64,000 bases of DNA, from NCBI GenBank assembly GCA_950054255.1, contig CATLOR010000001.1, positions 583,589 to 647,588 on the forward strand, in the 5' to 3' direction. Source of the stretch: an uncultured Rickettsiales bacterium (GTDB lineage: Bacteria > Pseudomonadota > Alphaproteobacteria > Micavibrionales > GCA-2720935). This document shows positions 3,779 through 55,791 of this stretch, piece after piece. How positions within the stretch are numbered: the first letter of the stretch is position 1; each line of letters opens with the position of its first letter. Both the position numbers and the translations under genes were made by a program. A model generated the notes under the pieces. It did not search any database. It saw only the letters and a list, made by a program, of their open reading frames with translations, and had not been told where the DNA came from.

Positions 3779-3781
3779 TTT

Positions 3782-6139: not shown

Positions 6140-6144
6140 ATAGC

Positions 6145-6684: not shown

Positions 6685-6917
6685 TGTGTTTTCTTCTCCT
6701 CGTTAAATTAAAAAATGAGTGTCTATCTCTTTCATAAGCACTCAATACAAGACACCATAATAGTTGCTAATTCTAAAGATTCAAGTGAATTCGCGCGTTA
6801 TTGTTTTTGTTTTACTCGGATCTTTACAAGTGAGGGAAAGTATTTTAAAAACAAAGAGTCGTGATTTAGCTGTGCGCTCGATCATATTTACATTCAATAA
6901 TCTATTAGGAAAATATC

Positions 6918-31355: not shown

Positions 31356-31363
31356 TTTATTTC

Positions 31364-32281: not shown

Positions 32282-32412
32282 GATACACTATATATCCGTT
32301 CGGGTATTTCTTAACTATTTCTTTCTTTTTGTGTGTCATACTTATTGATAATAGGACAGTTACGTCCCGATCTTAAAAGGACACAAGAATAGTTTTCGAG
32401 GAGCTGTAAGCA

Positions 32413-35400
32413 ATGAAAGACATACAAATGCCACAATCTGGCACCGAAGAAATGGTGGTCATTCAACCTGGTGAACACATTAATATTGTCGGTGTTTCTT
32501 TTGATCAAGTAAGTGTTGATATTGTTGGTACGGACATTGTGATCTTTAACGAAGCTGCTGGATCTAAGCTTGTATTCCCAGGTATGGGGCTTCTGATCTT
32601 TGAGCAAAGCTTGGCGCCTGAAATTTCTTTTGGTGGTGAATCTGTTGGTGTTAATAAGTTTGTATCTCGCGTTGGTGAGGTTGGTAACTTAACAGTAAAA
32701 GACTTTATCGCTATTTCGAGTATTTTGCCTCAGAAATCAGATTCTGAAGAAGAAAATTTACAAAGCGCTGAAGTTGATGCTAAGTCTGAAAAACAGCAAG
32801 AAACAGTAGCATCTTCTAGTTCAGCTCCAACAGAAGCACCTGTTGAGTCTCAATCTCAATCTTCTCAGAAAAAAGTTGAAGAAGATAAAGCGAAAACGAA
32901 AACACCGCCAAATGCGGTTGATGAAGAAGGGACATCGGATGGTACTTTTGAAGCTGTTGCTCAGTCTGATGGTGCGCCGCCTGCTTCTACAAATCCAAAT
33001 ATCTCTCCAACATTAGGGGAGGCGCCTGAAGAGCCAGTAACATCTCTTTCTATTGACGCGAATTTATTACAGGTTGCTGCTACTCAAGAAACACTGACTG
33101 TTGGTGCGCAAGATGTGCGCTTTATCTATGGTGGTGGTGGTTCAGCGACATCTTTCTTCGATCCTGAAAACCAACATCAATTCTCAACAGAAGCTATTGA
33201 TGCTTCTAATTCGTTATTATCAACGAACATTATTGCTGATAACCCAGATTATTATTCTGATGTACAAATGGCGCGTGTTCTACAGATTGAACCGACAGCG
33301 CCAGATGCTTTCTTTGTCACTGAAATCACGATTACAGGATTGCCTGATGGCTATGGTATTGTGGGACAAGAAAGACAAGAAGATGGTAGTTTCTTGATCG
33401 AAAACCCTGATTATACAGGACAAGGTGATATAAGATTTATTATCACATACCCGATCCCCGCATATGAATCATTTGTCTTAGAATTTGATTTTCTGGCTGA
33501 ATTTGATACACAATTCGCTGCTGATAACGGTATTCGAGCAACATCGATTACAGAGCTTGAGTTTTCTTTTGATCAAAAAGTTGAGCAAAATGATGTTTCT
33601 GGCCCAGATGATTTGAATTATACAGATATTGAAGGTGATTTCGTTTGGGTACTTGCAAATGCGCCAAATGACAACCGTATTGTTGGTTCAGCTCAAGATG
33701 ATGATATCACAGGTAATAGTGCTTCTGACTTTGTAACAGCAGGGGCTGGAAATGATATTGTTCGTGGTGGTGCAGGTGATGATACATTAGATGGTGAGGC
33801 TGGGAATGACACCTTAATTGGCGGTACAGGTTCTGATAGCTATATCGGTGGTGATGGCGTCGATGTTGTTGATTTCACAGACATAACAGCTGTTATTGAA
33901 GTTGATTTAAGTGATTTAAATGTTGATAATTTCGCTGTTATTGATATTGACCGTTTGGGCCCTGCGCCAGAACAAGATTTTATTAGAGAAGTTGAAAATA
34001 TTGACTCAGGGTCAGGAAGTGACGTCTTAACAGGGAATGCTTCTGATAACTATTTCCAAGGGAATGATGGGAATGATATTTTAGCGGGTCTTGGCGGTAA
34101 TGATATTTTAGATGGAGGAACAGGATCTGATACAGCAGATTACTCGAGAGAGGCGCAAGCTGTAACAGTTGATATGTCTTTGACAGTTGATCTTGAGAAT
34201 AAATTTGCAGTGATCGATTCTGAGACAAACCTTGATACTCTGATTAGCATTGAAAATATCATTGGTACAGATTTCGATGACTCTATTACAACAGATGAAA
34301 ATGATAACATTATTCAAGCAGGCTTAGGTGATGACTATATTAATGCTGGTGCTGGTGATGATACAATTGATGGTGGCGCTGGTGTTGATACATTGGATTA
34401 CTCTACATCAACAACGTCTGTTTCTATTGATTTAGGTGGGCCTCAGAACGGGAATGGTTATATTTCAGCCTCATCTGGTGTTGATAACGATCTTGTTATT
34501 AATGTTGAAAATATTATAGGGTCTCTTTTAAATGACAATATTTCTGGTGATGCGAATGACAACTTTCTTCGTGGACTAGATGGGTCTGATACACTACGTG
34601 GCGCGGATGGCGATGACACGATTGATGGTGGTATCGGTAGTGATTTAATTAATGGTGACGCTGGTGATGATACGATTATTGCGAGTATTGGTAGCGATGT
34701 TATTGATGGTGGTACAGGGTCTGATACGGTTGATTATTATAATTTAGCGACAATTAATCCTGGCGCTGAAGCTATTACAGTTTTACTGGATAATACAAAT
34801 GCTGTGACTGTGACAGTGATTAATGGTGATGATGATCAAATTCGTGGTGTTGAAAATATTCGCGGTACAACCTTTAATGACAATATCACAGGAGATGATG
34901 CGAATAACCATCTGCGTGGGATGGAGGGTGATGATACACTTTCTGGTCGTTTGGGCGATGATATCTTAGATGGTGGTGCAGGTATTGATACAGCTGATTA
35001 TACATTAGCGACAAGTGGTATTGATGTTGATTTGGCACTAAACACAGTCTTTGCTGATGGAGATGGTGGTAATGATACAATTATTTCGATCGAAAACATT
35101 CGTGGTTCTTCTTTTGATGATGTGATTTTAGGAAGTGGTAGCGCAGAAACATTAAGTGGTTTTGCGGGTAATGACCGTATTGCTGGCCGTGGTGGTAATG
35201 ATATCATTGATGGTGGTTTAGGGAATGATACAGTTGATTACGCAACACAGGCAAATGCTGTTATTGTTGATTTAATTGCTGGTACAGGACTGGATACGGT
35301 TGATTCTTCTGTAGATACATTGATTAGTATTGAAAATGTGATTGGTTCTGCGTTTGATGACCAAATTGTTACGGATGTTAACTTTAACGATATTAGAGCA

Positions 35401-38400
35401 GGCACTGGTGATGATATCATGATCGGTTCTGATGGTAGTGACACTTATGATGGTGGCGCTGGTGATGACTTTATTGATTATCTATTCTCAGGAGCAACGT
35501 CTTTAAGCGTAACATTGGATAGCAGTAATAATGCAAGTGTAACTCTTGCCGGCCTAGGAACAGTTGATACAATCCGTAATGTTGAAGGTATTGGCGGTAC
35601 TTTCGGCAATGATACGATGATTGGTGATGCATTGGCTAACACGTTCTCTGGAGATGATGGTGACGATTTCTTCCAAGGTGGTTTGGGTGCAGATTTAATC
35701 TTGGGTGGAACAGGAAATGATACCTTTAGTTTAGATGATTTAAGTGGCACAGGTTTTGGTGTGAACATGAACCTTGTTCTTGGAACAGCGGAAGATACAT
35801 TCTCAGGATCTATTGATAATTTTGTTGGGATTGAAACATATATTTTAACAGATGCGGCAGATACAGTTATTTCGTCAGCATTTGCTGAAACAGTGCAAGC
35901 TGGGGCAGGTGATGATGTTATTAATGCAAGCGCTGGTACGGATACATTTGATGGTGGCACAGGCGTTGATACATTAAGTTATACAAACTTTGCAGCAGGT
36001 AATGCGATTACAGTTGATCTTGATGCTGGTAACGCGGTTAGTGTTACAGTAAGTGGCGGTAGCGTTGACACAATCAGTAACATTGAAAATGTGACAGGAT
36101 CACAAGGTGATGATGTTATTTCAGGGGATGGTTTGATTAACCATCTTATTGGTGGTCAAGGGAATGACATTCTTGATGGTGAAGCCAATGATGACATCTT
36201 AGAAGGTGGATTTGGTAATGACACCCTAATTGGTGGTCTTGGTGATGATACCCTTATTGGTGGTACGGGATCGGATACTGCTGATTACTCTGGTGCAGCT
36301 GGAAATATCATTGTTGATATGACTGGTAATATTGCCTCAGCTGATGGTGATGGCGGCGTTGATATCTTTGATAGTATTGAAAATGTGATTGGTACAGACT
36401 TTAATGATACAATCGCTGGTAATGCGTTTGCTAACACATTAACCGGGGGCGCTGGTGACGATACGATTTCTGGTGGTTCTGGCTCGGATACATTAGATGG
36501 TGGCGCTGGCACAGGCGACAGACTGCGTTTTGATGAACTTGTTGATGGCTTTATTAACATTAATATTGGCACGGGTTCTGCGACTTATAGTGCGGATAGT
36601 AGTGTTGACAGTTTCATGAATTTTGAATTTTATGAATTAACAGCACAAAATGATATCGTAACTGGTTCAACGGGTATTGATGATGTTCAGACTTTAGCGG
36701 GTGATGATACAATCAACGCAAGTGCTGGTGATGATATTTATGATGGTGGTGATGGATCAGATACAATTGATTATTCTGCATCTGGTGCGACATCAATCAG
36801 TGTAGCTTTAGCAGGTACAAGCACGACAACAGTGACTGTGAGTGGTTTGGCTGGTGATGATACAATTAGAAATATTGAAAACGTAACAGGTTCAACTGGT
36901 AATGATACAATTACTGGGGATTCAAATGTGAATAGAATTTTAGGTCAAGCGGGTGATGATATCATTATCGGTGGTGCGGGCTCAGATATTCTTGATGGTG
37001 GTGCTGGTACAGATACGCTTCGTTTCGATGATCTTGTTGGTGCGGGTATCCAAATTGACTTTGATGTTAATCGTGCGACCTTCTTTGGGGATAGTTCTCA
37101 AGACGTATTCTCTAATTTTGAAATTTTTTACATGTCTAACCAAGATGATATTATCAATAGTTTCACAGGCGCTGAAACTGTCTTTGGCTTGGGTGGTGAT
37201 GATACCTTTAATGCAGATTCAGGTGCGGATACCTTTGATGGTGGCACAGGTACAGATACCGTTGATTATTCTGGTATGGCGACAGCCAACTTTATTACGG
37301 TTACTTTAAACGGGAATGCAGATGCGACTGTTACAATTAATGGTGATGCGTCTGTCGATACAATTCGTGATATTGAAAATGTGATTGGGACAGCCGGTGC
37401 TGATACGATCACAGGGGACGCCGAAGGAAATGATCTTTCAGGTCTAAGCGGTGCCGACATTCTTGATGGTGGTGATGGCGATGACTATTTACGTGGTGGA
37501 AATGATAATGATACTTTAATTGGTGGCGCGGGTTCTGATACGCTTGATGGTGGATTAGGAACAGATACGGCTGATTATTCTGGTGCGGCTGCTGGTATTA
37601 ACGCAAACCTTGGTGCGAATTCAGTATCAAATGATGGTGATGGCGGTGGAGATAACCTCATTAGCATTGAAAATATCCGTGGATCAAACTTTGCCGATAA
37701 CGTATTCGGTAATGCTTTTGTGAACTCTATCTTTGGTTTAGACGGAAATGACATTTTGCGTGGTGGTGAAGGTTCTGACTTCCTTGATGGTGGTGATGGA
37801 ACAGATACGCTTCGTTTCGATGACCTATTGAACAGCGGTATTACATTAGATTTACAAGCAGGCACAGCGAATTATAGTTTTGATAACAGTACTGATACAT
37901 TCACAAACTTTGAAAACTATGTAACAACAGCTCTTGATGATGTGATTTCAGGGTCAGCAGGTGTTGACATTGTTAATGCCGTTAGTGGACAAGATTTATT
38001 TAATGCAAGTGCTGGTAATGACCAATTAGATGGTGGTTTAGGTACGGATGAGGTTGATTATTCTGGTCTATCTGGCGTATCTATTACATTAACGCTTGAT
38101 ACATCAAATTACGCAACAGTGACAGTTACTGGCGGTGATGATGACCAAATCAGAAATATTGAAAACGTAACTGGGTCAACAGGAGCTGATGACATCACAG
38201 GCGATAGTTTTGTGAATGTGATCGATGGTGATGCTGGTGATGATACACTGCGTGGTCGCGGTGGTAATGACGTTTTAGATGGTGGCGCTGGCACAGATAC
38301 GGCCGATTACTCATTGGCTGCTGGTGCTGTAAATGTTGATTTATCAATTAACCGTGCTATTAGTGATGGTGATGGATCAACCGATACGCTGAACAATATT

Positions 38401-41400
38401 GAAAACGTGTCTGGATCTGTTGTTGATGATACATTAGCTGGGGATGCTGGAAATAACGTTCTATTTGGTAATACAGGGAATGATACACTGCGTGGCCGTG
38501 GTGGTGATGATACACTTGATGGTGGCGTGGGTACAGATGAAGCTGATTATTCATTAGCTGCAGCAGGTGTTACAATTGATCTCTTAAATGGGCAAACAAC
38601 CGATGATGGTGATGGTGGCGTTGATACGCTTGTGAATATTGAAGATCTGATCGGGTCTGGCTTTGATGATGATATTACTGGTGATGATGGCGCGAACACA
38701 ATTACTGGTGGTGCTGGTAATGATATTCTTCGCGGTGAAGGTGGAGATGACTTCCTTGCTGGTGGTAGTGGTACAGATACAATTGATTACCGTGTTGCAT
38801 CAGGGTCTGTGAGTGTTGATTTAACAAGCTCACAAACAAGTAATGATGGTGATGGTGGCGTTGATACATTAAGTAGTATCGAGAACGTGATTGGTTCTGC
38901 TGGGAATGACTTGATAATTGGTAACGCATTAGGAAACGTTTTAAACGGCGATGCGGGCAATGATGATCTTCGTGGCCGTGGTGGTGATGATACACTTGAT
39001 GGTGACGGTGGTATCGATACAGCAAACTACGTTCTTGCAACAAATGCAGTCACAGTCGACTTATCGGTTGGTCAAGCAACCGATGATGGTGATGGTGGCG
39101 TTGATACATTAATTGAAATTGAAAACGTAACAGGCTCTATCAATAATGATACTCTTACAGGGGATTCAGGCATTAACACGTTAAATGGTGGCGACGGTGA
39201 TGATCTGCTCGAAGGTCTTGGCGGCGATGACACAATTATTGGTGGTATTGGTACAGATACAGTAACATATGCGAATTCTACAGCAGGTGTGACTGTTGAC
39301 CTCTTTAACTCAACAACAACAAATGATGGTTTTGGCGGCGTTGATACACTTGTCACAATTGAAAATATTACAGGTTCTGGTAACGCGGATAGTTTGACAG
39401 GGGATAATTCAGCGAACTTAATTTCTGGTGGTGCTGGTAATGATACAATCCGTGGTCGTGGTGGTAATGATGATCTTCGCGGTGGCGCTGGTACAGATAC
39501 AGTTGATTATTCACTCGCATCTTCTGGTGTTGTTGTCGATTTAGCGATTAATAACACATCAAATGATGGTGATGGCGGTATTGATACATTATCTGGTTTT
39601 GAAAATATCCAAGGATCGAACTTTGCCGATGTGTTAAATGGTGATGCTGCTAATAATACGATTAATGGTGGTGTTGATAATGATACTTTATACGGTGCTG
39701 GTGGTAATGATACGATTATTGGTGGCGACGGTGATGATACAGTTAGTTATGATCGGGCAGCCGCAGCGGTAACGGTTGACTTAGCTCTTGGTTTAGCAGT
39801 CAATGATGGTGATGGTGGTATTGATACATTGACAACCATCGAAAATGTGCTTGGTTCTGACTTCGATGATACCTTAACAGGGGATAACTTAGCGAACACA
39901 TTATCTGGTGGCGCGGGCGTTGATACCCTTGATGGTGGCGACGGTGATGACTTGCTTCAAGGTGATGCTGGGAATGATAATTTCATTGCGAGTGCTGGTG
40001 CGGATACGTTTGATGGTGGTACAGGCTCTGATACATTAGATTATCAAAACTTAGCAGGAGCAAACTTTATTACAGTTTCTTTACTTGGGTCTTCTGATGC
40101 AACAGTCACAGTTGATGGAGGCTCAGCAGACACAGTTCGTAATGTTGAAAATATTACAGCCACAGCTGGTGCAGATACATTAATTGGTGATGGGAATGCT
40201 AATACATTCTTTGGCTTAGGCGGTGCGGACCGTTTAATTGGTGGTGGCGGTACAGATACGCTTGATGGTGGCGCTGGTACGGATGTTGTTGATTATTCAA
40301 CCTCTATCGCAGGTGTTAATGTAGATTTAAGCACAAATCAGGCTACAGATGATGGTCTTGGCGCAACAGATAATATCTTTAATGTTGAAAATATTAGAGG
40401 TTCTATCTATGGCGATACATTAAAAGGTGACGGCGCAACAAATACAGTTGATGGTGACCAAGGGAATGACACATTCTTATATTCTGGTGGGAATGATATC
40501 TTAGATGGTGGCGCAGATATTGATACTGTTGACTATTCTCAAGATGGTTCTGTGACATCTATCTCTGTTACTTTAACAAATTCAACACTTGCAACAGTTA
40601 CAGTTAATGGTGGCGACAATGACCAAGTTCGCAATATTGAAAACATCACAGCAACAAGCGGTAGTGATAGTATCTTTGGGGATACAGCTGATAACACAAT
40701 TACTTTATTGGGCGGAAATGACTTTGCTCGTGGTGGTCTAGGTTCAGATACCTTTGATGGTGGTGCTGGTTACGATATTTTATACTTTGATGATATAGCG
40801 GGTGGTGGAATTACACTTGATCTAGGTGCTGCGACAGCAACCTTTGATGGGGATGCATCAACAGATACATTTACTGGTTTTGAAGAATATTGGGGAAGTA
40901 ACCAAGGTGACCTCTTAACAGGATCTGCGAATGCTGACCTTATCTATGGTAATGGCGGCGATGATATTTTCTATGGTACAGCTGGTACAGATACGTTAGA
41001 TGGTAACGGTGGTTCGGATACAATTAACTTTGCCTCTTATGCGGCAGCGAATTTCATTACTGTGACATTAAATGGTGGAACAGCGGCAAATGTTGTTGTT
41101 AATGGCAGTGATACAGACAGTATCGTTAATATTGAAAACGTGACAGGGTCACAAGGTGATGACGTTATCACTGGGGACTCAGGTATTAACACGCTAAGCG
41201 GTGGCTTAGGAGATGATACGCTTGATGGCGGTTTAGGAAATGACTTCATCAATGGTGATGCTGGCGCGGATATGATTTTAGGAAATGATGGCGCGGATAA
41301 CATTGATGGTGGTGCGGGTGTCGATACACTTGACTATTCTGTGCACGGAAATGCAAATGCGATTACAGTAACGTTAAATGACTCTGGTAATGCAGGTGTT

Positions 41401-44400
41401 CAAATTGATGGCGCAGAAGATGATATTATTCGTAACATTGAAAATATTATTGGTACAGCTGGCGCGGACGTTATTATTGGTGATACACAGCAAAACTTAC
41501 TTGAAGGTCGTGATGGCAATGACTTTTTAACAGGGGGAACTGGTGCGGATACCCTTGATGGTGGTGATGGTATTGATACAGCTGATTATTCTGTATTTGG
41601 CTCTACAGGTGCTATTTCTGTGACATTGAATGGATCAAATGATGTTACAGTGAATGTCACTGGGGATGATAATGATACGATCAGAAATATCGAAAATGTG
41701 ATCGGTACTTTGAATAATGATACAATCATTGGTGATAGCCTTGATAACGAGTTAACAGGTAATGACGGCGATGATACATTAATTGGTAATGGTGGTATGG
41801 ATACACTCGATGGTGGTGATGGTAGTGATACGGTCGATTACTCATTAGATGTAACAGCAACGGCAATTTCTGTAATCTTAAATGCGGATGCGACAGCAAC
41901 AGTGACTGTTACAGGCTCACCAGATGTGGACCTTATTCGTAATATTGAAAATATTATAGCGACAGCTGGAAATGATACAATAGAAGGTGACTTCTTAGCT
42001 AATAACCTACGCGGTTTAGCTGGAGATGATACATTTAATAATATTGGTGATGGTGATGTTATCGATGGTGGTGCGGATACAGATACTATTTACAATGGCC
42101 TTTTAGGGAATGTAACCATTGATATGAGTACTATTTCAATGGGTTACGCCACAGCAACAAATGGTACAGAGAGCTATCAATTCATTAATGTTGAAAACTT
42201 CCGCTCATTTGAGAACCTAAATGCGACCTATGATATTACTGGGGATGCAAATGATAATATTATTACGACCTCAAATGATAGAAATAATAACGATACTGTC
42301 CGTGGTGGTGGCGGTAATGATACGATTTCTACCTATGAAGGTAATGATACGGTTTATGGGGATGCCGGGGATGATATTATCAACACAGGCAATGGAAATG
42401 ATACTGTATATGGTGGTGATGGTAATGACACAATTACCGGGAATGGTACAATGTACGGTGACGCTGGTGATGATGTCATTAATTTTTCTGGAACGGCGTA
42501 TGGTGGTGATGGCGATGACACGATTACTGGTACAAATAGTACAAGTAACGATACGATCTACGGTGGGGCAGGAAATGATACATTAAGCGGTGGTAATTAT
42601 AGCGATACCATTTATGGTGGGGATGATAATGATACTATTTATGGTGGTAATCATACAGATACTCTTTATGGGGATGCTGGCGATGATATTATCTATGGTG
42701 GTAATGAGCGAGATAGATTATATGGTGGTGATGGTGATGACCAACTGTTTGGACAAAATAATAACGACCGTTTCTATTTAAGTAATGGAACAGACCATAT
42801 TGATGGTGGTAGTCAAGGTGGTAATAATATTGGTGATGCGAACATTTTAAGTAATGGTAGCTATGGTGACTATATTATGGGTAGTGACTTGTCTGATGTG
42901 ACAGGTGCGACCCGTATTACAGTTGATTTACAAGCTGGTACATTCTCTACAGATGCAGGAACATCAGGGACATTAACAAATATCGAAAGTGTGATCGGTA
43001 ATACTGGAAATGATGTTGTTACAGATAATGGTTCAAATAATGATATTGAACTGGGTGCTGGCGACGATATTATTTATGCTGACGGCGGTGGAAACGATTA
43101 TTTCCGCGGTGATGCTGGGAGTGATACCCTTGATTATACAGGTGAAGCCGGCAATATCAGTGTGAATTTAAACACTGTTGCGGCGGGCGCGGTAACTGTA
43201 AGCGTTGATAGTGGCGCGGAAGCAGATATAATTTATGGTTTCGAGCGCTTTATCGGTGGTGAAGGGAATGATTATATTATTGCCCATGCATCGGATACGA
43301 CATATTTAGCTGGTGGTGCTGGGAATGATTATCTTTTAGGGGATGACGGCGTTCTTGTTGAGGCTGGCGATGGAAATGACAGATTAGGATCTCGTGCTTC
43401 AGGTGGTGCAACATTAGATGGTGGCGCTGGGAATGACACAGTTGAATATTCTGGTACAAATGGTCAATCATCTGGTACAGCGGGTATTTCTGTTACGCTT
43501 CAAGAGACTGGAGATACAACAGTTGATTATCTAGACGGATCAGCGACAGATGAAACAATTAGAAATATTGAAAACATCACAGGGAGTGACTATGCTGACC
43601 AAATTACAGGTAACTCTGTAACAAATATCTTAATTGGTGGTGCAGGTAACGATACATTTGGTGCTTCTGATGGGAATGATACTTATAATGGTGGTTCTGG
43701 TTCAGATACATTGGATTACTCTGGTTTCTTAACAGCAACAGCGATTACAGTGGCTCTGTTAGATTCTGGAACAGCAACAATTACCGTAACAGGTGTTGGT
43801 AACCAATTCGCAGATGGCATTGAGAATGTTACATCAACTGCTGGCGCAGATGATATTACAGGAAACGCATCAGCAAATACAATTAACACTGGCGCAGGGA
43901 ATGATATCGTACGTGTATCATCAGGCGCGGATGTTTTAAATGGTGGCGCGGATACAGATACATTCCGTGCAGATGCTCTTGCAACAGGAAATGGTATTTT
44001 AAACCTGACAGCTGGCACATTTACAAATGCTTCTGAGGGTGTAACAACATTCTTAAGTAATTTTGAAATCTATTATACAACGAACCAAGCAGATACAATT
44101 ACACTTCATACAACAGATGAAGAAGTCTATGCTCTTAATGGTGATGATACGATTATTGCATCAACAGGCGCTGACTTGATTGATGGTGGCGCTGGTACAG
44201 ATACATTGTCTTATAACTCAATATCAGGTCTAACAGGTATTACAGTAACACTGGATGGCTCGAATGATGCAACAGTGACAGTGAATGGTAATAGTGATCA
44301 AACAATCCGTAATATTGAGCATTTAACAGGATCTCAAGGGAATGATAATATTACAGGTGATGCCGGTAACAACATTTTAATTGGTGATATTGGTAATGAT

Positions 44401-47400
44401 ACAATTAATGGTGGTGACGGTGATGACACAATCGCTGGTGGCTTTGGTAATGATACATTAAATGGTGGTATCGGTACGGATTTACTTGACTATTCTGCAA
44501 CATCTGGAGGTCTTGATGTCAATCTTCAATCTGGTGTGGTTGCAAGTGATGGCCAAGGTGGTTCTGACACAGTTTCTAACTTTGAAGATGTTGATGGCGG
44601 TAGCGGTGATGACATTATTTCTGGTAACAACTTAGATAACGTGATTGATGGTGGTGTTGGTAATGACACAATTCAAGGTCGCGGTGGTGATGATACCCTT
44701 ATTGGTGGTGGCGGTAGTGATACATTATCATACGCGAATGCAGCCTCTGGTGTCACAGTTGATTTAACATCGGGCAATGTCGCAGATGATGGTGATGGTG
44801 GATCTGATACATTCTCTGGCTTTGAAAACTTAACAGGGTCAGCAAATGCTGATAACTTAACAGGTACAGGCTCAGCAAACATTATTACGGCAGGTGCTGG
44901 GAATGATACTATTGTTGCAACAGCTGGAGATGATACGCTTGATGGCGAAGGCGGAACTGATATCGTTGACTATTCAAATGCTGGTGGCGCAGTCACAGTG
45001 AACTTAGATGCTGGTACAGCTTCTGGATTTGGGAATGACACACTTGCAAATATTGAAAATGTAATTGCAACTGCGAATAACGATACTATTACACTGAATG
45101 CCCTTAATAATGACATTGATGCAGGTGCAGGCAATGACACGATTTTTGCTGGTTACGGCGGAACAAACGATATCGATGGCCAAGGCGGCGGTTTAGATAT
45201 TGTTGATTATAGTAACTCTGCAAATGCTGTCACAGTTGACCTAGATGCAGGGACTGCAACAGGTACTGGTATTAGTGATACATTATCAAATATTGAAGGC
45301 GCTGTTGGTACAAATGCAAATGATGTCTTTGATGGTGATGGAAATAACAACACATTCACAGGTGGTCTAGGTATTGATACAATTACGTATGCTGATGATA
45401 TCGCGCCAGTCTTAGTGGATCTCACAAATAACTTTGCGATTGATGGTAGTGCTTCTACAGACACGTTGGTTGGTATTGAGAATGTGATTGGTACCGTTGG
45501 TGATGATACGATCTTTGGTGATGGTCAGGCCAATGTAATTACAGGCAACGGGGGTACAGATTTTATTGCAACAGCCGCTGGGAATGATACGATCATTATG
45601 TCTAACATCTTAAATAGCACACTTGATGGTGGTGCTGGTTTTGATTTGATTGATTTCTCTGGTTTTGGTTCAGCGTTAACAATTGATTTACTAGCAGGTG
45701 GTCAAACAGCCACAGACGGCGTTAATACAGATACATTGGTAAGTATTGAAAATATTATCGCGACTGACTTTAATGACATTATTATTGGAAGTTCGGTCAA
45801 TAATGATATTGATGGTGGTGCTGGTACAGATACGATCGCATTCTTGAATGCGACAGGTGGCGTTGTGGTCAGTCTATTAGCGGGCACAGCAACAGGTGAT
45901 GGTAGCGATACATTCTCTAACATTGAAAATGTCGTTGGATCGACTAATAATGATACGATTGCTGGTGACGCTGGAGATAACGATTTAGATGGTGATACTG
46001 GTACGGATACACTTACATACGCAGCAGCAGCTGGCGGTGTAACAATTGATCTAGATGCGGGCACAGTAACTGGTGATGGTAATGACACAATTTCTAACTT
46101 TGAAAATGTCATTGGTAGTGCGAATGCAGATACAATCGGTGGTGACTCTGGTAATAACGACCTAAATGGTGGTGCTGGTACAGATACATTAACATATGCA
46201 TCTGCTGCGGGGAGTGTTAATATTGATTTAACAGCTGGCACAGTAACTGGTGATGGTAATGATACAGTATCGAACTTTGAAAATGTTATCGGTTCATCAA
46301 ATGACGATACAATTAAAGGAGATACTGGCAATAACAACTTAAATGGTGGCGCTGGTACTGATACGGTTTCTTATGCAGGTGTCGGTTCTTCAGTTTCTGT
46401 TGATTTACAAGCAGGAACAGCTACTGGCCATGGTAATGATACACTTTCTAACTTTGAAAATATTATTGGTGGTAACAATGCGGACATTCTTGTTGGTGAT
46501 ACAGGCGTTAACTCTATCCAAGGTGGCGCGGGCGATGATATCTTAGAGGGTGGCGCTGGTAACGATACACTAGACGGTGGTGCTGGTGGTACTGATACAG
46601 CAAGTTATACAAATGGTACAGAAGGCGCTAATATTAACATGGGTACAGGTGTTGTTAGTAATGATGGTTACGGTAACTCTGATACATTAATTGATATTGA
46701 GCGTGTTGAAGGTACAAATTTCGCAGATACAATCGTTGGTAGCGCGAATAATGATACAATTATTTCAAACTCAGGTAATGATACAATTACAGCGGGCGAT
46801 GGCAACGATACGATTAATGCGGGCCTCGGGAATGATACAATTTTTGCTGGCGCTGGTAATGACAACATTAATGGTGGTGGTGGTGTAGATACCATTAATT
46901 ATAGTGCAGCAACAGGTGCTGTAACGGTTAATCTTCAAAATAGTACAGCGAGTAATGATGGTTTTGGTGATGCTGATACGATTAATGGTGTTGAGAACGT
47001 AGTTGGTTCTGCTCAAAATGATACAATCGGTGGTGATACAGGCGATAATAACCTTGATGGTGGCGCTGGTACAGATACATTATCATATGCATCAACAGGA
47101 TCAGCAGTTACAGTTGATTTAGACGCAGGCACAGCAACAGGTCATGGTACCGATACGATTTCTAACTTCGAAAACGTCACAGGTGGTACAGGTAATGATA
47201 CAATAGGTGGTGATAGTGGAAATAATGTCATCAATGGTGGTAGTGGTAATGATACAGTGACTTATGCATCTGCTGCGGGTGGTGTTACAATTAACTTTAA
47301 CACAAACCAAGTGACAGGCGATGGTACAGATACATTGATCAGTATTGAAGATGCGATTGGTAGTGATAACGCAGATACTTTCATCGCAGGATCATCTAGT

Positions 47401-50298
47401 AATGATATGGATGGTGGCGCTGGTGTTGATACTGTTGATTATTCTAATGCTGGTGGCAATGTTACGATTAACCTTGCAACGGGTTCTGTGACTGGTTTTG
47501 GTACAGATACTGTTACAAATATTGAAAATGTGATTGGTTCGGATAACAATGATACGATTGTAAGTGGCTCTGGTAATAATGATCTAGATGGTGGCGCTGG
47601 TACAGATACACTTTCATTTGCGAATGCTGGATCAGGTGTCACAGTTGATATGGGTGCAGGCACAGCAACAGGTGATGGTAGTGATACATTCTCTAACTTT
47701 GAAAACTTAACAGGTTCAAGTAATGCTGACAGCTTAACAGGTGATGCTAACGTTAATACAATCAATGGTGGCGGCGGTACCGATACAATTGATGGTGCTG
47801 GTGGTGCAGATGTGATTAATGCTGGTGGCGGTAATGATACAATCATCTTTGATGCAAGCGATACATCTGTTGATGGTGGCGCTGGTACTGATACCTTAGT
47901 TGCAAGCAACTCTGGTGATACAATTGATCTAAGTGTTGGTTCAATCACAAATGTTGAAAATATTACAGGTGGTACAGGTGCTGACACCTTAACAGGTGAT
48001 GCTGCTGTAAACACAATTAATGCAGGTGCTGGTGCGGATATCATCGATGGTGGCGCTGGGGCAGATATCATTAATGCTGGATCAGGGAATGATACAATCA
48101 TCTTTGACGCAAGCGATACATCGGTTGATGGTGGTGCAGATACTGACACAATTCAATTAAGCAACTCAGGCGATACGATTGATTTAAGTGTTGGTTCAAT
48201 CACAAATGTTGAAAATATTACAGGTGGTACAGGCGCTGATAACATTACTGGTGATAATGCAGCAAACGTTATTAATGCAGGTGCTGGTGCGGATATCATT
48301 GATGGTGGCGCTGGGGCGGATACAATTGATGCAGGGGCTGGGAATGATACCGTTTCTTATGATGCATCAGATGTTTCAATTGACGGTGGCGCGGACACAG
48401 ATACGCTTCAATTAGGTAACGGTGGTGTGACTTATACGCTTAACACAGGAAACACGAGCAATTTTGAAAACATTACAGGTGGTACAGGTAACGATACATT
48501 AACTGGTGATGGTTCTGCAAACGTGATTAACGGTGGATCAGGGAATGATACGCTTGATGGTGCTGGCGGTGCGGATACGCTTAACGGCGGTGCTGGTAAT
48601 GATACAATTATCTATGACGCAGCGGATACATCAATTGATGGTGGCGCGGATACTGATACGCTTCAATTAAGTAATGCTGGTGATACAGTTGATTTAAGTT
48701 CTGGATCAATTAGCAATATTGAAATTGTTCAAGGTGGTACAGGCGCTGATAATATTACTGGTGATGGTAATGCAAATACAATCAATGGCGGTAATGGTAA
48801 TGATACAATTAATGCTGGTGGCGGTGCCGATATCATTGATGGTGAAGGCGGATCAGATACAATTGATGCTGGCGCTGGTAATGATACAATCATCTTTGAC
48901 GCGGCTGATACATCGGTTAATGGTGGCAGTGGGACAGATACCTTAGTTGCAAGCAACTCAGGTGATACAATTGACCTAAGTGTTGGTTCGATCACAAATG
49001 TTGAAAATATTACAGGTGGCACAGGTGCTGATACCTTAACAGGTGATGCGACTGTGAACACAATTAATGCAGGTGCTGGTGCGGATATCATTGATGGTGG
49101 CGCTGGGGCAGATATCATTAATGCTGGATCTGGTGATGATACAATTATCTTTGATGCAAGTGATACATCAATTAATGGTGGTGCGGACACAGATACAATT
49201 CAATTAAGCAATGCTGGTGATACAATTGACCTAAGTGTTGGTTCGATCACAAATGTTGAAAATATCACAGGTGGTACAGGTGCGGATAACATTACTGGTG
49301 ATGGCAGTGCAAATGTGATTAATGCAGGTGCTGGTGCGGATACTATTGACGGTGGTGCGGGCGCAGACACAATTGATGCTGGTGCTGGGAATGATACAGT
49401 TGCTTATGATGCACTTGATGTGTCAATTGATGGTGGCGCGGATACAGATACACTTGTTACAGATAATAGCGGTGTCACAGTAACATTGAATTCAGGTAAC
49501 ATTAGTAACTTTGAAAACTTAACTGGTGGTACAGGTAACGATACTTTAACGGGTGATGCTTTTGATAATACCATTAATGGTGGTGACGGTAATGATACGT
49601 TAGATGGCGCTGCGGGTACAGATATTTTAAATGGTGGTGCTGGTAATGATATCTTAGATGGTGGTGTTGGTGCAGATACGTTAAACGGTGGCTCAGGTAA
49701 TGATACATTAGATGGTGGTGCTGGTTCGGATATTTTAAATGGTGGTGATGATATTGATACAGCTGATTATTCTTCATCTGCGGCCGTTTCTGGTGGTGAG
49801 ATCAGAGGCGCGACATCAACATTCTTAAATGTTGGTCCTGCAACAGATACATTAAATGACATTGAAATCATCGATTTATCAGGTAATGATGATACCATCA
49901 ACATTGACGCCGATGGTTTAGCAGATCTAACAACACTTGATGGTCAAGGTGGTACAGATACCTTTATCTGGTTAGATACTTCTGGTGGTGCTGATCTGAC
50001 AGACTCTGGTATTGATGGTGTTGATATGGCTTCTGTCTTTAGAAATGTTGAGACAATCGACTTTAGAAATACAGATATCACAGGTATAGATACATTTGAT
50101 ATTGGTGATGATGAGATCCGTGCAATGACAGATGGTGGCGATAGCTTGACAATCTTAATTGATGGTACAAATATCACATTGAATGACTTCTCATTCTTGG
50201 ATCAAACATCAAGCGTTGATACAAATAATACAGATAACACAACATTCCGTACTGTTACTTGGGCAGATGGAACACAAGTTGATATTCAAGTTAGCTAA
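32413..50298 (+). CDS. Giant RTX (repeats-in-toxin) calcium-binding beta-roll protein, a probable T1SS-secreted adhesin, 5961 aa
   Basis: It is a single uninterrupted 17,886-nt ORF with GAGGAG 8 nt before the ATG. From about residue 430 onward it contains GGxGxDxL/I nonapeptides throughout. These are organised in modules of the form ...DYS..A..V.VDL..G.A..DG.G..DTL..IENV.GS..(N/D)D.(I/L).GD. The N-terminal ~430 aa and the C-terminal ~170 aa are non-repetitive, and there is no Cys-rich or enzymatic domain. T1SS genes flank it. Confidence 0.9.
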   Translation: MKDIQMPQSGTEEMVVIQPGEHINIVGVSFDQVSVDIVGTDIVIFNEAAGSKLVFPGMGLLIFEQSLAPEISFGGESVGVNKFVSRVGEVGNLTVKDFIAISSILPQKSDSEEENLQSAEVDAKSEKQQETVASSSSAPTEAPVESQSQSSQKKVEEDKAKTKTPPNAVDEEGTSDGTFEAVAQSDGAPPASTNPNISPTLGEAPEEPVTSLSIDANLLQVAATQETLTVGAQDVRFIYGGGGSATSFFDPENQHQFSTEAIDASNSLLSTNIIADNPDYYSDVQMARVLQIEPTAPDAFFVTEITITGLPDGYGIVGQERQEDGSFLIENPDYTGQGDIRFIITYPIPAYESFVLEFDFLAEFDTQFAADNGIRATSITELEFSFDQKVEQNDVSGPDDLNYTDIEGDFVWVLANAPNDNRIVGSAQDDDITGNSASDFVTAGAGNDIVRGGAGDDTLDGEAGNDTLIGGTGSDSYIGGDGVDVVDFTDITAVIEVDLSDLNVDNFAVIDIDRLGPAPEQDFIREVENIDSGSGSDVLTGNASDNYFQGNDGNDILAGLGGNDILDGGTGSDTADYSREAQAVTVDMSLTVDLENKFAVIDSETNLDTLISIENIIGTDFDDSITTDENDNIIQAGLGDDYINAGAGDDTIDGGAGVDTLDYSTSTTSVSIDLGGPQNGNGYISASSGVDNDLVINVENIIGSLLNDNISGDANDNFLRGLDGSDTLRGADGDDTIDGGIGSDLINGDAGDDTIIASIGSDVIDGGTGSDTVDYYNLATINPGAEAITVLLDNTNAVTVTVINGDDDQIRGVENIRGTTFNDNITGDDANNHLRGMEGDDTLSGRLGDDILDGGAGIDTADYTLATSGIDVDLALNTVFADGDGGNDTIISIENIRGSSFDDVILGSGSAETLSGFAGNDRIAGRGGNDIIDGGLGNDTVDYATQANAVIVDLIAGTGLDTVDSSVDTLISIENVIGSAFDDQIVTDVNFNDIRAGTGDDIMIGSDGSDTYDGGAGDDFIDYLFSGATSLSVTLDSSNNASVTLAGLGTVDTIRNVEGIGGTFGNDTMIGDALANTFSGDDGDDFFQGGLGADLILGGTGNDTFSLDDLSGTGFGVNMNLVLGTAEDTFSGSIDNFVGIETYILTDAADTVISSAFAETVQAGAGDDVINASAGTDTFDGGTGVDTLSYTNFAAGNAITVDLDAGNAVSVTVSGGSVDTISNIENVTGSQGDDVISGDGLINHLIGGQGNDILDGEANDDILEGGFGNDTLIGGLGDDTLIGGTGSDTADYSGAAGNIIVDMTGNIASADGDGGVDIFDSIENVIGTDFNDTIAGNAFANTLTGGAGDDTISGGSGSDTLDGGAGTGDRLRFDELVDGFININIGTGSATYSADSSVDSFMNFEFYELTAQNDIVTGSTGIDDVQTLAGDDTINASAGDDIYDGGDGSDTIDYSASGATSISVALAGTSTTTVTVSGLAGDDTIRNIENVTGSTGNDTITGDSNVNRILGQAGDDIIIGGAGSDILDGGAGTDTLRFDDLVGAGIQIDFDVNRATFFGDSSQDVFSNFEIFYMSNQDDIINSFTGAETVFGLGGDDTFNADSGADTFDGGTGTDTVDYSGMATANFITVTLNGNADATVTINGDASVDTIRDIENVIGTAGADTITGDAEGNDLSGLSGADILDGGDGDDYLRGGNDNDTLIGGAGSDTLDGGLGTDTADYSGAAAGINANLGANSVSNDGDGGGDNLISIENIRGSNFADNVFGNAFVNSIFGLDGNDILRGGEGSDFLDGGDGTDTLRFDDLLNSGITLDLQAGTANYSFDNSTDTFTNFENYVTTALDDVISGSAGVDIVNAVSGQDLFNASAGNDQLDGGLGTDEVDYSGLSGVSITLTLDTSNYATVTVTGGDDDQIRNIENVTGSTGADDITGDSFVNVIDGDAGDDTLRGRGGNDVLDGGAGTDTADYSLAAGAVNVDLSINRAISDGDGSTDTLNNIENVSGSVVDDTLAGDAGNNVLFGNTGNDTLRGRGGDDTLDGGVGTDEADYSLAAAGVTIDLLNGQTTDDGDGGVDTLVNIEDLIGSGFDDDITGDDGANTITGGAGNDILRGEGGDDFLAGGSGTDTIDYRVASGSVSVDLTSSQTSNDGDGGVDTLSSIENVIGSAGNDLIIGNALGNVLNGDAGNDDLRGRGGDDTLDGDGGIDTANYVLATNAVTVDLSVGQATDDGDGGVDTLIEIENVTGSINNDTLTGDSGINTLNGGDGDDLLEGLGGDDTIIGGIGTDTVTYANSTAGVTVDLFNSTTTNDGFGGVDTLVTIENITGSGNADSLTGDNSANLISGGAGNDTIRGRGGNDDLRGGAGTDTVDYSLASSGVVVDLAINNTSNDGDGGIDTLSGFENIQGSNFADVLNGDAANNTINGGVDNDTLYGAGGNDTIIGGDGDDTVSYDRAAAAVTVDLALGLAVNDGDGGIDTLTTIENVLGSDFDDTLTGDNLANTLSGGAGVDTLDGGDGDDLLQGDAGNDNFIASAGADTFDGGTGSDTLDYQNLAGANFITVSLLGSSDATVTVDGGSADTVRNVENITATAGADTLIGDGNANTFFGLGGADRLIGGGGTDTLDGGAGTDVVDYSTSIAGVNVDLSTNQATDDGLGATDNIFNVENIRGSIYGDTLKGDGATNTVDGDQGNDTFLYSGGNDILDGGADIDTVDYSQDGSVTSISVTLTNSTLATVTVNGGDNDQVRNIENITATSGSDSIFGDTADNTITLLGGNDFARGGLGSDTFDGGAGYDILYFDDIAGGGITLDLGAATATFDGDASTDTFTGFEEYWGSNQGDLLTGSANADLIYGNGGDDIFYGTAGTDTLDGNGGSDTINFASYAAANFITVTLNGGTAANVVVNGSDTDSIVNIENVTGSQGDDVITGDSGINTLSGGLGDDTLDGGLGNDFINGDAGADMILGNDGADNIDGGAGVDTLDYSVHGNANAITVTLNDSGNAGVQIDGAEDDIIRNIENIIGTAGADVIIGDTQQNLLEGRDGNDFLTGGTGADTLDGGDGIDTADYSVFGSTGAISVTLNGSNDVTVNVTGDDNDTIRNIENVIGTLNNDTIIGDSLDNELTGNDGDDTLIGNGGMDTLDGGDGSDTVDYSLDVTATAISVILNADATATVTVTGSPDVDLIRNIENIIATAGNDTIEGDFLANNLRGLAGDDTFNNIGDGDVIDGGADTDTIYNGLLGNVTIDMSTISMGYATATNGTESYQFINVENFRSFENLNATYDITGDANDNIITTSNDRNNNDTVRGGGGNDTISTYEGNDTVYGDAGDDIINTGNGNDTVYGGDGNDTITGNGTMYGDAGDDVINFSGTAYGGDGDDTITGTNSTSNDTIYGGAGNDTLSGGNYSDTIYGGDDNDTIYGGNHTDTLYGDAGDDIIYGGNERDRLYGGDGDDQLFGQNNNDRFYLSNGTDHIDGGSQGGNNIGDANILSNGSYGDYIMGSDLSDVTGATRITVDLQAGTFSTDAGTSGTLTNIESVIGNTGNDVVTDNGSNNDIELGAGDDIIYADGGGNDYFRGDAGSDTLDYTGEAGNISVNLNTVAAGAVTVSVDSGAEADIIYGFERFIGGEGNDYIIAHASDTTYLAGGAGNDYLLGDDGVLVEAGDGNDRLGSRASGGATLDGGAGNDTVEYSGTNGQSSGTAGISVTLQETGDTTVDYLDGSATDETIRNIENITGSDYADQITGNSVTNILIGGAGNDTFGASDGNDTYNGGSGSDTLDYSGFLTATAITVALLDSGTATITVTGVGNQFADGIENVTSTAGADDITGNASANTINTGAGNDIVRVSSGADVLNGGADTDTFRADALATGNGILNLTAGTFTNASEGVTTFLSNFEIYYTTNQADTITLHTTDEEVYALNGDDTIIASTGADLIDGGAGTDTLSYNSISGLTGITVTLDGSNDATVTVNGNSDQTIRNIEHLTGSQGNDNITGDAGNNILIGDIGNDTINGGDGDDTIAGGFGNDTLNGGIGTDLLDYSATSGGLDVNLQSGVVASDGQGGSDTVSNFEDVDGGSGDDIISGNNLDNVIDGGVGNDTIQGRGGDDTLIGGGGSDTLSYANAASGVTVDLTSGNVADDGDGGSDTFSGFENLTGSANADNLTGTGSANIITAGAGNDTIVATAGDDTLDGEGGTDIVDYSNAGGAVTVNLDAGTASGFGNDTLANIENVIATANNDTITLNALNNDIDAGAGNDTIFAGYGGTNDIDGQGGGLDIVDYSNSANAVTVDLDAGTATGTGISDTLSNIEGAVGTNANDVFDGDGNNNTFTGGLGIDTITYADDIAPVLVDLTNNFAIDGSASTDTLVGIENVIGTVGDDTIFGDGQANVITGNGGTDFIATAAGNDTIIMSNILNSTLDGGAGFDLIDFSGFGSALTIDLLAGGQTATDGVNTDTLVSIENIIATDFNDIIIGSSVNNDIDGGAGTDTIAFLNATGGVVVSLLAGTATGDGSDTFSNIENVVGSTNNDTIAGDAGDNDLDGDTGTDTLTYAAAAGGVTIDLDAGTVTGDGNDTISNFENVIGSANADTIGGDSGNNDLNGGAGTDTLTYASAAGSVNIDLTAGTVTGDGNDTVSNFENVIGSSNDDTIKGDTGNNNLNGGAGTDTVSYAGVGSSVSVDLQAGTATGHGNDTLSNFENIIGGNNADILVGDTGVNSIQGGAGDDILEGGAGNDTLDGGAGGTDTASYTNGTEGANINMGTGVVSNDGYGNSDTLIDIERVEGTNFADTIVGSANNDTIISNSGNDTITAGDGNDTINAGLGNDTIFAGAGNDNINGGGGVDTINYSAATGAVTVNLQNSTASNDGFGDADTINGVENVVGSAQNDTIGGDTGDNNLDGGAGTDTLSYASTGSAVTVDLDAGTATGHGTDTISNFENVTGGTGNDTIGGDSGNNVINGGSGNDTVTYASAAGGVTINFNTNQVTGDGTDTLISIEDAIGSDNADTFIAGSSSNDMDGGAGVDTVDYSNAGGNVTINLATGSVTGFGTDTVTNIENVIGSDNNDTIVSGSGNNDLDGGAGTDTLSFANAGSGVTVDMGAGTATGDGSDTFSNFENLTGSSNADSLTGDANVNTINGGGGTDTIDGAGGADVINAGGGNDTIIFDASDTSVDGGAGTDTLVASNSGDTIDLSVGSITNVENITGGTGADTLTGDAAVNTINAGAGADIIDGGAGADIINAGSGNDTIIFDASDTSVDGGADTDTIQLSNSGDTIDLSVGSITNVENITGGTGADNITGDNAANVINAGAGADIIDGGAGADTIDAGAGNDTVSYDASDVSIDGGADTDTLQLGNGGVTYTLNTGNTSNFENITGGTGNDTLTGDGSANVINGGSGNDTLDGAGGADTLNGGAGNDTIIYDAADTSIDGGADTDTLQLSNAGDTVDLSSGSISNIEIVQGGTGADNITGDGNANTINGGNGNDTINAGGGADIIDGEGGSDTIDAGAGNDTIIFDAADTSVNGGSGTDTLVASNSGDTIDLSVGSITNVENITGGTGADTLTGDATVNTINAGAGADIIDGGAGADIINAGSGDDTIIFDASDTSINGGADTDTIQLSNAGDTIDLSVGSITNVENITGGTGADNITGDGSANVINAGAGADTIDGGAGADTIDAGAGNDTVAYDALDVSIDGGADTDTLVTDNSGVTVTLNSGNISNFENLTGGTGNDTLTGDAFDNTINGGDGNDTLDGAAGTDILNGGAGNDILDGGVGADTLNGGSGNDTLDGGAGSDILNGGDDIDTADYSSSAAVSGGEIRGATSTFLNVGPATDTLNDIEIIDLSGNDDTINIDADGLADLTTLDGQGGTDTFIWLDTSGGADLTDSGIDGVDMASVFRNVETIDFRNTDITGIDTFDIGDDEIRAMTDGGDSLTILIDGTNITLNDFSFLDQTSSVDTNNTDNTTFRTVTWADGTQVDIQVS
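47842..49653 (+). repeat. In-frame higher-order tandem duplication inside the giant gene (1047-nt period)
   Basis: The block 47842-48888 consists of four ~85-94-aa units. Its first three units recur at 48889-49653 with only scattered substitutions. For example, GATACCTTAGTTGCAAGCAAC occurs at 47890 and again at 48937. Confidence 0.85.
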
Positions 50299-55449: not shown

Positions 55450-55791
55450 ATGATCTTTCGTATATTATTCATCTGTATATTATTTTCTTTTATAGCACCT
55501 GTGAGCGCCAATCAGGTGGATTTTCGTAATGATGAAACATTAGAAGAAAGCTTCTTGCCTCCTGGGGCTGTTTTTGACCCTAGTTGGATGATGTGTAAGC
55601 AAGCAAAAGATTGCACAGCTATTGAAGGGCCTTGTGAAACGTTTTTACCAATTAATAAAAAATATAAGCGTGAAGGCAAGAAGTTTTACGAAGCTTTATC
55701 TGAAAGAGTAAAATGTCCTGAAGGCATGAATGTGCCAATCCCTAAAAATTTAGGATGTTTGCAAGGCCAATGTGCGGTAACTGCACAGTAG
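55450..55791 (+). CDS. Small exported cysteine-containing protein
   Basis: It is 113 aa with a signal peptide (ILFICILFSFIAPVSA). The mature part contains six Cys residues. Confidence 0.5.
   Translation: MIFRILFICILFSFIAPVSANQVDFRNDETLEESFLPPGAVFDPSWMMCKQAKDCTAIEGPCETFLPINKKYKREGKKFYEALSERVKCPEGMNVPIPKNLGCLQGQCAVTAQ

Follow-up and report, generated by a model that had tools for sequence, protein, structure and literature searches.

The window described here is a 64,000-nt stretch of DNA from an uncultured alphaproteobacterium of the order Micavibrionales (GenBank assembly GCA_950054255.1, contig CATLOR010000001.1, positions 583,589–647,588 of the forward strand). It carries a giant gene whose open reading frame (ORF), judged from its sequence, is real and intact and encodes a calcium-binding protein that would be secreted by a type I secretion system (T1SS). 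This protein has a body of about 62 tandem modules, each combining a block of repeats-in-toxin (RTX) nonapeptides with a linker of the type known from the RTX domain of CyaA, the adenylate cyclase toxin of Bordetella pertussis. The giant is probably a surface fiber, namely a kinked β-roll that would be ratcheted out of the cell by Ca2+ and would serve in adhesion or contact in this Micavibrio-order bacterium, as opposed to a toxin or an enzyme.

That the region is a single 17.9-kb gene, as a sequence-only reading of the window had claimed, is confirmed by the frame itself. It is free of internal stops, it is preceded by a Shine–Dalgarno sequence (Table 1), and its start is conserved, with the start peptide MK.I.MP.SG being kept in homologues. 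The product has a mass of 593 kDa, an isoelectric point (pI) of 4.05, a net charge of −923, and no cysteine; its residues include 17.2% Gly, 14.5% Asp, 11.4% Thr, and 9.2% Asn. PF00353 (HemolysinCabind) is the sole Pfam family on the protein and covers about 80 stretches from residue ~445 to ~5,800 (E 1e-146, 3e-116, and 2e-101 for the three pieces in which the protein was searched). NCBIfam returns only RTX-bearing families, all of them far below their cut-offs. Ig-like, cadherin, vWA, lectin, PA14, and enzyme families are detected by neither Pfam nor NCBIfam, in agreement with the earlier statement that no Ig-like, cadherin-like, vWA, lectin, or enzymatic domains are interspersed. Pfam is also blank on residues 1–430, which bears out the proposed nonrepetitive N-terminal region of about 430 residues. 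GxDx[LIVFMY] motifs number 245 at an even density of about nine per 200 residues, and GxxGxD turns number 183. Taken with the secretion genes on its flanks, the PF00353-only annotation upholds the description of the giant as T1SS cargo with an RTX-type body throughout.

One might suppose instead that the gene is a nonfunctional relic or an assembly chimera, in which the frame has been kept by chance in low-complexity DNA. Nothing specific speaks for this, apart from the long open frames that the GGT/GAT-rich sequence leaves on the other strand as well. The lack of any stop over 17.9 kb argues against it, as do the conservation of head and tail (homologues of 31–48% identity occur in several lineages), the conserved synteny with secretion genes, and modules that have diverged yet keep their invariant structural residues. 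Such an origin is scarcely credible.

Architecture of the RTX body

The repeat body is tiled almost without gaps by a module hidden Markov model (HMM) from residue 423 to 5,800. The recurring landmark ...DTL..IENV.GS...D.L.GD..., which had been picked out from the letters, proved to be a regular element, as 57 copies are found by a regular expression and 62–63 by an iterated linker HMM. Successive landmarks are most commonly 80 residues apart (12 times), followed by spacings of 84, 85, and 59 residues with five to six occurrences each. The full range is 59–121 residues, the exception being one gap of 354 residues. Across the copies, the Glu of "IEN" is invariant (62/62), as is D (63/63), and Tyr or Phe fills the aromatic position of "DYS" in 59 of 62 copies. 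Within each 80-residue module, about two thirds is in the 9-residue register, consisting of three canonical GGxGxD turns and two to three degenerate ones; the rest is a linker of about 26 residues that is not nonapeptide.

The nature of this linker becomes apparent when three modules are compared by phmmer with every chain in the PDB. The RTX structures of CyaA are matched with E 1.5e-46 (7usl), 7e-29 (7rah), and 1e-18 (6sus), and the segment ...D.L..IEN..GS...D.L.GD.. aligns with the CyaA interblock linkers, including IENxxGSxxxDxIxGD. By this alignment, the landmark is the conserved linker that joins the blocks in the RTX domain of Bordetella CyaA. For CyaA, it was shown that the linkers L1–L4 share one fold with a conserved Tyr/Phe (Goldsmith et al., PMC8486122), that they contribute an antiparallel strand and put a kink into the roll (PMC8486122), and that they are surfaces for neutralizing antibodies and probably also for the receptor (PMC8486122). 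Hence, the giant is not purely nonapeptide in composition, since it comprises about 62 copies of the CyaA unit of RTX block plus linker, with blocks of five to six repeats. The earlier description of an almost pure nonapeptide protein therefore stands insofar as RTX repeats span the whole body and falls insofar as the landmark is a CyaA-type linker and only about two thirds of each module is in register.

The sequence-only reading had proposed a structure prediction of representative modules. Three modules (residues 1988–2227) were modeled with AlphaFold2 from an alignment of 22 in-phase module triplets taken from this gene and three homologues. The predicted structure is all-β, with a predicted local distance difference test score (pLDDT) of 96.5. 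In every 80 residues, six strands keep a strict 9-residue register, and four irregular ones come after them at intervals of +11, +7, +11, and +6. In a Foldseek search with this model, 7usl, 7rah, and 6sus again rank first, with serralysins and lipases next.

CyaA being the closest solved structure, one may ask whether the giant is itself an RTX toxin of the HlyA/CyaA type, pore-forming or cytolytic, that lyses prey or host cells. It was once speculated that the RTX proteins of Micavibrio make pores in prey (PMC3189940). However, the giant resembles CyaA only in its RTX part. The 19-residue Kyte–Doolittle mean peaks at 1.66, in a single window within a linker, and no hydrophobic pore-forming segment is found; neither an acylation domain nor any other Pfam family accompanies PF00353, and there is no HlyC-type acyltransferase among the neighboring genes. 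PF02794 has no match in the genome but is also silent in every control genome, so the genome-wide search for HlyC is uninformative. A toxin is thus very improbable, and this reading was rejected for the missing hydrophobic domain.

Three parts of the body depart from the common pattern (Table 1). The only long run without linkers lies mid-protein and is made up of GGxGNDTIY nonapeptides, about 20 in number, each with Tyr as its last residue; such YGG runs are also seen near the C-terminal part of the giants of Methyloradius (P0087) and Halarcobacter (P0067). Farther downstream, two subarrays differ in module length. Within the second of them, the 765-nt blocks 47842–48606 and 48889–49653 are 83% identical.

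Head, tail, and secretion cluster

The nonrepetitive N-terminal region is resolved by AlphaFold2, in a model built on nine homologues, into a small β module, a disordered tether, and a β-sandwich. Residues 1–90 of the β module are predicted with a pLDDT of 80–91 and the β-sandwich with 82–95, except for the loop of residues 244–257. The GEVGNL..D.I.IS.I columns of the N-terminal module are invariant in nine homologues. The tether of about 110 residues occurs in all homologues, and its sequence is not conserved. Comparison of the N-terminal ~90 residues with the N termini of giant RTX-only proteins of Sphingomonas, Bradyrhizobium, Methyloradius, and Halarcobacter by hhalign gives a probability of 97.5% and E 5.5e-12. 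The module is common to the giants P0009, P0018, P0087, P0101, and P0067, from Alpha-, Beta-, and Epsilonproteobacteria-type organisms, and is covered by no Pfam or NCBIfam model; it is a candidate new family. A search of 1.84 billion representatives places the two-domain head as a whole in 121 clusters, where it begins almost without exception in the first ~40 residues of the protein.

It had been suggested that the N terminus resembles the prefix of Bap/Lap-type adhesins, and this resemblance is not supported. In four family members, the head matches no Pfam family at E ≤ 10, PF22783 included; residues 1–500 have no NCBIfam match, retention modules included; and a profile search finds no PDB chain at E ≤ 10. 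Foldseek gives only generic Ig-like hits, none below E 0.01. The AAG at residues 47–49 (EAAG at 46–49) is not conserved in eight homologues. Membership of the head in the Bap/Lap-prefix family was rejected on the basis of these blank searches and the merely generic structural hits.

At the other end, the last ~170 residues are nonrepetitive, as had been stated, and are directly followed by the ABC transporter and membrane fusion protein genes. This C-terminal region is conserved in the homologues P0002–P0007 and shows a weak similarity to P0101, the giant of Bradyrhizobium (BLASTP E 7e-4).

Table 1. Features of the giant RTX gene and of the T1SS genes around it, with positions in the 64,000-nt window and residues of the giant protein (pLDDT, as above, from AlphaFold2; TRF, tandem-repeat search)
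Feature	Position	Strand	Residues	Basis
MotA/ZorA-like membrane protein, 482 aa, T1SS cluster accessory	27862–29310	+		NCBIfam ZorA E 3.8e-4 (weak)
OmpA/MotB-like peptidoglycan-binding protein, 232 aa	29310–30008	+		Pfam OmpA E 6e-4, NCBIfam peptidoglycan-binding E 8e-8, neither reaching its cut-off
TolC-like outer membrane factor, 448 aa	30009–31355	+		PF02321 OEP E 3.7e-45
309-aa protein between TolC and cargo gene	31352–32281	+		No Pfam or NCBIfam match
Shine–Dalgarno sequence GAGGAG	32398–32403	+		9 nt 5' of ATG, seen in the letters
Giant RTX gene	32413–50298	+	1–5961	ATG start, 5,961 codons plus stop, one uninterrupted ORF
N-terminal β module, invariant GEVGNL..D.I.IS.I; candidate retention or secretion-coupling module	32413–32727	+	1–105	AlphaFold2, conservation
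Acidic Ser/Gln/Pro-rich tether, predicted disordered	32728–33024	+	106–204	pLDDT 27–48
β-sandwich head domain, invariant LLQ, GGGG, QxSxE, and MxRV motifs	33025–33681	+	205–423	AlphaFold2
Tandem modules of RTX block plus CyaA-type linker, about 62	33679–49785	+	423–5791	Module HMM, linker HMM
Linker-free "YGG" nonapeptide run (GGxGNDTIY), about 220 aa	42196–42852	+	3262–3480	Linker gap, weak module matches, TRF arrays of period 27/54
Subarray of mainly short 59–62-aa modules	45724–47682	+	4438–5090	Linker spacing; 177-nt DNA repeat family, 62–73% identity
Subarray of 85-aa modules, older higher-order duplication	47680–49782	+	5090–5790	255-nt repeat family, 63–87% identity
Nonrepetitive C-terminal region, presumed cap and T1SS secretion signal	49786–50295	+	5792–5961	PDB matches end at last RTX block
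T1SS ATP-binding cassette (ABC) transporter, LssB type, 703 aa, N-terminal C39-like domain	50441–52552	+		TIGR03375 E 2.2e-199
HlyD-family T1SS membrane fusion protein (MFP), 422 aa	52559–53827	+		TIGR01843 E 2.3e-104, above cut-off

The genes of the secretion cluster surround the giant gene on the same strand. The ABC transporter reaches 664 bits with TIGR03375, just below the cut-off of 693, and also matches ABC_tran, ABC_membrane, and Peptidase_C39 (E 1.5e-4). Linkage of the cargo with ABC, MFP, TolC, and MotA/OmpA-like genes is conserved in the homologous loci L001, L003, and L007 and in the closed genome G018. Therein, MotA-like orthologues adjoin the giant gene with 44% (L001), 43% (L003), and 45% (G018) identity, OmpA-like orthologues are 47% (L001) and 37% (L003) identical, and TolC-like orthologues occur in L001, L003, and G018. 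The 309-aa protein has a counterpart at the same position in L001 (31% identity, E 5e-41). No useful PDB sequence match exists for the OmpA-like protein. Promoter and terminator scans are at or near the level of shuffled sequence, and no convincing terminator is seen between the cluster genes.

The reading of the giant as a surface fiber is favored on several grounds. The ORF is intact with its Shine–Dalgarno sequence, and T1SS genes lie on both sides of it on the same strand in a conserved linkage. The modules match the CyaA RTX domain both by sequence and by Foldseek, with Tyr/Phe in 59 of 62 linkers as in L1–L4. The head combines β module, tether, and β-sandwich, and its N-terminal module is common to other giant RTX-only proteins. 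A hydrophobic pore-forming segment is missing, and giant homologues occur in 6 of 41 genomes of the order, including an ORF of 6,917 codons in a closed genome. Lastly, Micavibrio RTX proteins have been proposed to act in prey recognition and adhesion (PMC3189940).

As to the mechanism, knowledge of T1SS and RTX proteins suggests that the chain would be exported unfolded, with its C terminus in the lead, by way of the ABC/MFP/TolC channel. Once it is outside, Ca2+ would fold the modules one by one and thus act as a ratchet that pulls the chain out (PMC8486122, PMC3034196). The product would be a Ca2+-loaded β-roll filament, kinked at each linker like CyaA, with an estimated contour length of about 0.15 μm from about 300 layers of 4.8 Å. 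The steps that follow are the least certain. The N-terminal module and tether might emerge last and hold the fiber at the cell surface, the MotA/OmpA-like pair possibly controls its retention, and the ~62 protruding linkers could provide a multivalent binding surface for contact with other cells.

Several results weigh against this reading. NCBIfam, Pfam, and alignment reveal no recognized retention module, LapG site, or ligand-binding domain, so surface retention and adhesion are put forward by analogy. The β-sandwich of the head has no significant structural neighbor, with Foldseek giving only generic Ig-like or adhesin-type hits at E ≥ 0.01. The presumed C-terminal signal matches no family model in Pfam or NCBIfam and no solved structure, and the MotA/OmpA-like assignments are weak matches. 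The confidence of the module model (pLDDT 96.5) may be inflated, as its alignment was made of paralogous modules.

Alternatively, the giant could be an exoprotein that is released in full and then forms a coat on the cell or an extracellular Ca2+-dependent matrix, like RTX S-layer proteins, in which case the head would pass the channel too. RTX-type S-layer proteins are a known class of T1SS cargo (PMC3034196). The missing signatures of a retention module and a LapG site are in line with release, and the extreme acidity together with about 180–250 Ca sites could support Ca-bridged lattices. On the other hand, the conserved N-terminal module and the long disordered tether resemble a plug-and-tether layout, and the MotA/OmpA-like accessory pair has been kept next to the cargo. 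In the Salmonella pathogenicity island SPI-4, a MotA/OmpA-like pair goes with a surface-retained adhesin, which counts against release. So does size, the giant being far larger than known RTX S-layer monomers. Full release is accordingly regarded as unlikely, and the surface fiber is retained as the preferred reading.

Comparison with known giant secreted proteins

The general traits of the RTX/T1SS family are tandem GGxGxDxUx nonapeptides, a pI of about 3.2–4.9, linked genes for ABC, MFP, and TolC-like proteins, and an uncleaved C-terminal signal (Linhartova et al. 2010, PMC3034196). The giant exhibits PF00353 nonapeptides, a pI of 4.05, and linked ABC, HlyD, and OEP genes. Compared with the RTX domain of CyaA (blocks I–V and linkers L1–L4; PDB 7USL, 7RAH, 6SUS, and 5CVW), it has the same unit, meaning a GGxGxDxUx run followed by a Tyr/Phe linker, and would presumably share the Ca2+-driven, C-to-N templated folding that is coupled to T1SS export. 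Differences lie in scale and in the accompanying domains. CyaA has five blocks of about 8–11 repeats in a toxin of 1,706 residues, whereas the giant has about 62 blocks of five to six repeats. The adenylate cyclase, hydrophobic, and acylated domains of CyaA are absent from the giant, with no acyltransferase gene nearby, and its C-terminal cap is not detectably similar to that of CyaA. The R-modules of the mannuronan C5-epimerase AlgE and the C-terminal rolls of serralysins, both secondary matches, are alike in the parallel β-roll and in Ca2+ bound at GGxGxD turns. However, they are single short rolls on an enzyme, and the giant has no catalytic domain.

The T1SS RTX adhesins LapA, MpIBP, SiiE, and FrhA and a 5,047-residue adhesin of Aeromonas resemble the giant as megadalton-class T1SS cargo with an LssB-type, C39-like ABC transporter, TolC, and HlyD. 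They are also alike in having a nonrepetitive N-terminal head and, by analogy, in their likely Ca2+ dependence. Their extenders are BIg or cadherin domains, whereas the extender of the giant is formed by RTX modules, with PF00353 alone at residues 445–5,800. The giant also lacks a recognizable retention module, a conserved di-alanine LapG site, and split ligand-binding domains; the β module and tether may be a functional analogue of the former. SPI-4 (SiiABCDF, with SiiE as cargo) contains a MotA/OmpA-like pair in its cluster, to which the pair beside the giant may correspond, a likeness drawn from weak family matches and synteny.

At C1:677537–678292, about 44 kb farther downstream than the giant gene, the source genome encodes a LapG-like protein of 251 residues (Peptidase_C93, PF06035, E 1.8e-18). 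It has a signal-peptide-like start and no LapD-like neighbor. PF06035 is found in 40 of the order's 41 genomes, with or without the cargo, compared with 6 of 41 for the cargo head. Because of its distance, the missing LapD neighbor, and this near-universal presence, the gene was rejected as a specific partner of the giant. As an observation in its own right, such a distribution is unusual for a protease that is normally tied to LapA-type adhesins.

Close counterparts are the giant putative RTX proteins found by genome mining in 2010 (Linhartova et al., PMC3034196), which have the same size range of 3.3–8 thousand amino acids (kaa), PF00353 only, the same module, and an acidic pI. In databases, such giants are named "Ca2+-binding RTX toxin-like protein", "calcium-binding protein", or "beta strand repeat-containing protein". 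For putative proteins, the review already mentions "very extensive RTX repeat domains", citing one of 4,334 residues with almost 200 Ca sites and one of 5,107 residues with about 170 (PMC3034196). Several of the giants mined here share the N-terminal ~90-residue module and the C-terminal region with the protein of the window. Its two-domain head sets it apart among them as a small subfamily of 121 clusters.

The abundance of such proteins was estimated with residues 1900–2480 as the module query and with targets limited to 0.55–1.75 times the length of the giant, that is, 3.3–10.4 kaa. At least 814 clusters of proteins in this range share the modules at E ≤ 1e-10; the count is a floor, as only 996 candidates were scored. 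Among the best 120 module-sharing clusters, 62 (3.3–7.9 kaa) have PF00353 as their sole Pfam family, including proteins of cultured Sphingomonas, Methyloradius, Bradyrhizobium, and Arcobacter, and the several that were inspected are RTX plus linker from end to end. Hence, the view that a protein of nearly 6,000 residues with an RTX-type extender is unusual has to be given up, given these clusters and the published precedents. By its domain content, the giant is an ordinary member of a known, poorly studied class, and a limited literature search returned no paper that characterizes an RTX-only giant. Within the order, 6 of 41 genomes have the head family, spread over 5 of 25 genera, with open frames of 4,616–6,917 codons.

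Taken alone, the gene thus adds one more giant putative RTX protein to a kind that has appeared in genome surveys since 2010 and has hundreds of database entries. What the CyaA identity of block and linker offers is a concrete fold and folding model for megaproteins annotated only as "calcium-binding". The N-terminal ~90-residue module and the C-terminal region, both conserved and uncurated, would merit family definitions. These giants are also natural "linker arrays", similar to the designed scaffolds proposed in PMC8486122. By analogy, candidate roles would be adhesion, matrix formation, or contact with prey. More tentatively, and with rather less confidence than the fiber itself, one may picture a widespread and unstudied class of T1SS surface fibers. 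In these, short CyaA-type blocks plus linkers would act as extender, the N-terminal module and tether as retention device, and the MotA/OmpA-like pair as control, while the regularly spaced linkers would both kink the roll into a superhelical rod and serve as multivalent binding sites. Micavibrio-order epibionts or predators might use these sites to cling to other cells.

Assembled length and further genes

The length of the giant calls for caution. The exact protein has no match in a collection of 15 billion proteins, and therefore the same gene is without an independent assembly. Within the gene, the longest exact repeat measures 50 nt, and the repeat families are 60–87% identical. A homologue in G018, a closed genome of 2.24 Mb, spans 20,754 nt and encodes 6,917 residues (C1:994653–1015406, loci L013/L014). 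It contains about 10 copies of an 849-nt unit (283 residues, three modules) at about 99% identity. The same gene, as judged from flanks that are 99.9% identical, is present on the short-read contig L007 (9001–22104), where it has one 849-nt copy, 13,104 nt, and 4,367 residues, and no exact repeat of ≥50 nt. Accordingly, the scarcity of long repeats in the gene of the window proves nothing about its length, because the single-copy gene of L007 is without a repeat trace as well. The internal-repeat analysis was abandoned as proof against collapse, as G018 and L007 illustrate that a collapsed array would leave no trace.

The difference between G018 and L007 is due to either assembly collapse or strain variation, and the 5,961 residues may be a lower bound on the true length. 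If near-identical tandem modules had been collapsed by the assembler here, the true protein would exceed 5,961 residues, a caveat that is compatible with each of the other readings. The ~10 copies in G018 versus the one in L007 point in this direction. Against it, the source genome (1.99 Mb, 38.5% GC) is assembled in five contigs at 99.78% completeness, and the gene lies well inside a contig of 1.04 Mb. Furthermore, the internal repeats that are present have already diverged to 60–87% identity, and the length gap between G018 and L007 could itself be strain variation. We therefore consider a collapse in the window to be on the improbable side. For metagenome-assembled genomes in general, the closed genome and the short-read contig suggest that the lengths of such genes can be gross underestimates.

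Further large ORFs of the source genome are located at C3:155911 (+), C1:862211 (+), and C4:158562 (−). Among them, a frame of 1,671 residues with 67 GxDxU motifs is a second RTX protein; the others have 2,217 and 2,735 residues. In L007, the giant gene is accompanied at 1–1911 and 4806–6989 by genes for a serralysin-type RTX metalloprotease of 911 residues (Peptidase_M10 plus HemolysinCabind) and an autotransporter (PF03797), so that a second T1SS-type cargo lies near the same ABC/MFP pair. In G018, a pair of neighboring ORFs whose first ~40 residues are identical occupies C1:988545–990478, together with overlapping opposite-strand ORFs, between the TolC-like and the MFP/ABC genes; these ORFs resemble duplicated copies of insertion sequences. 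Just downstream of the T1SS cluster in the window, a zeta-toxin/AAA_33-like kinase (PF06414, E 5.6e-16) is encoded at 54581–55429, flanked by ORFs at 53840–54466 (minus strand) and 55450–55791 that have no family match.

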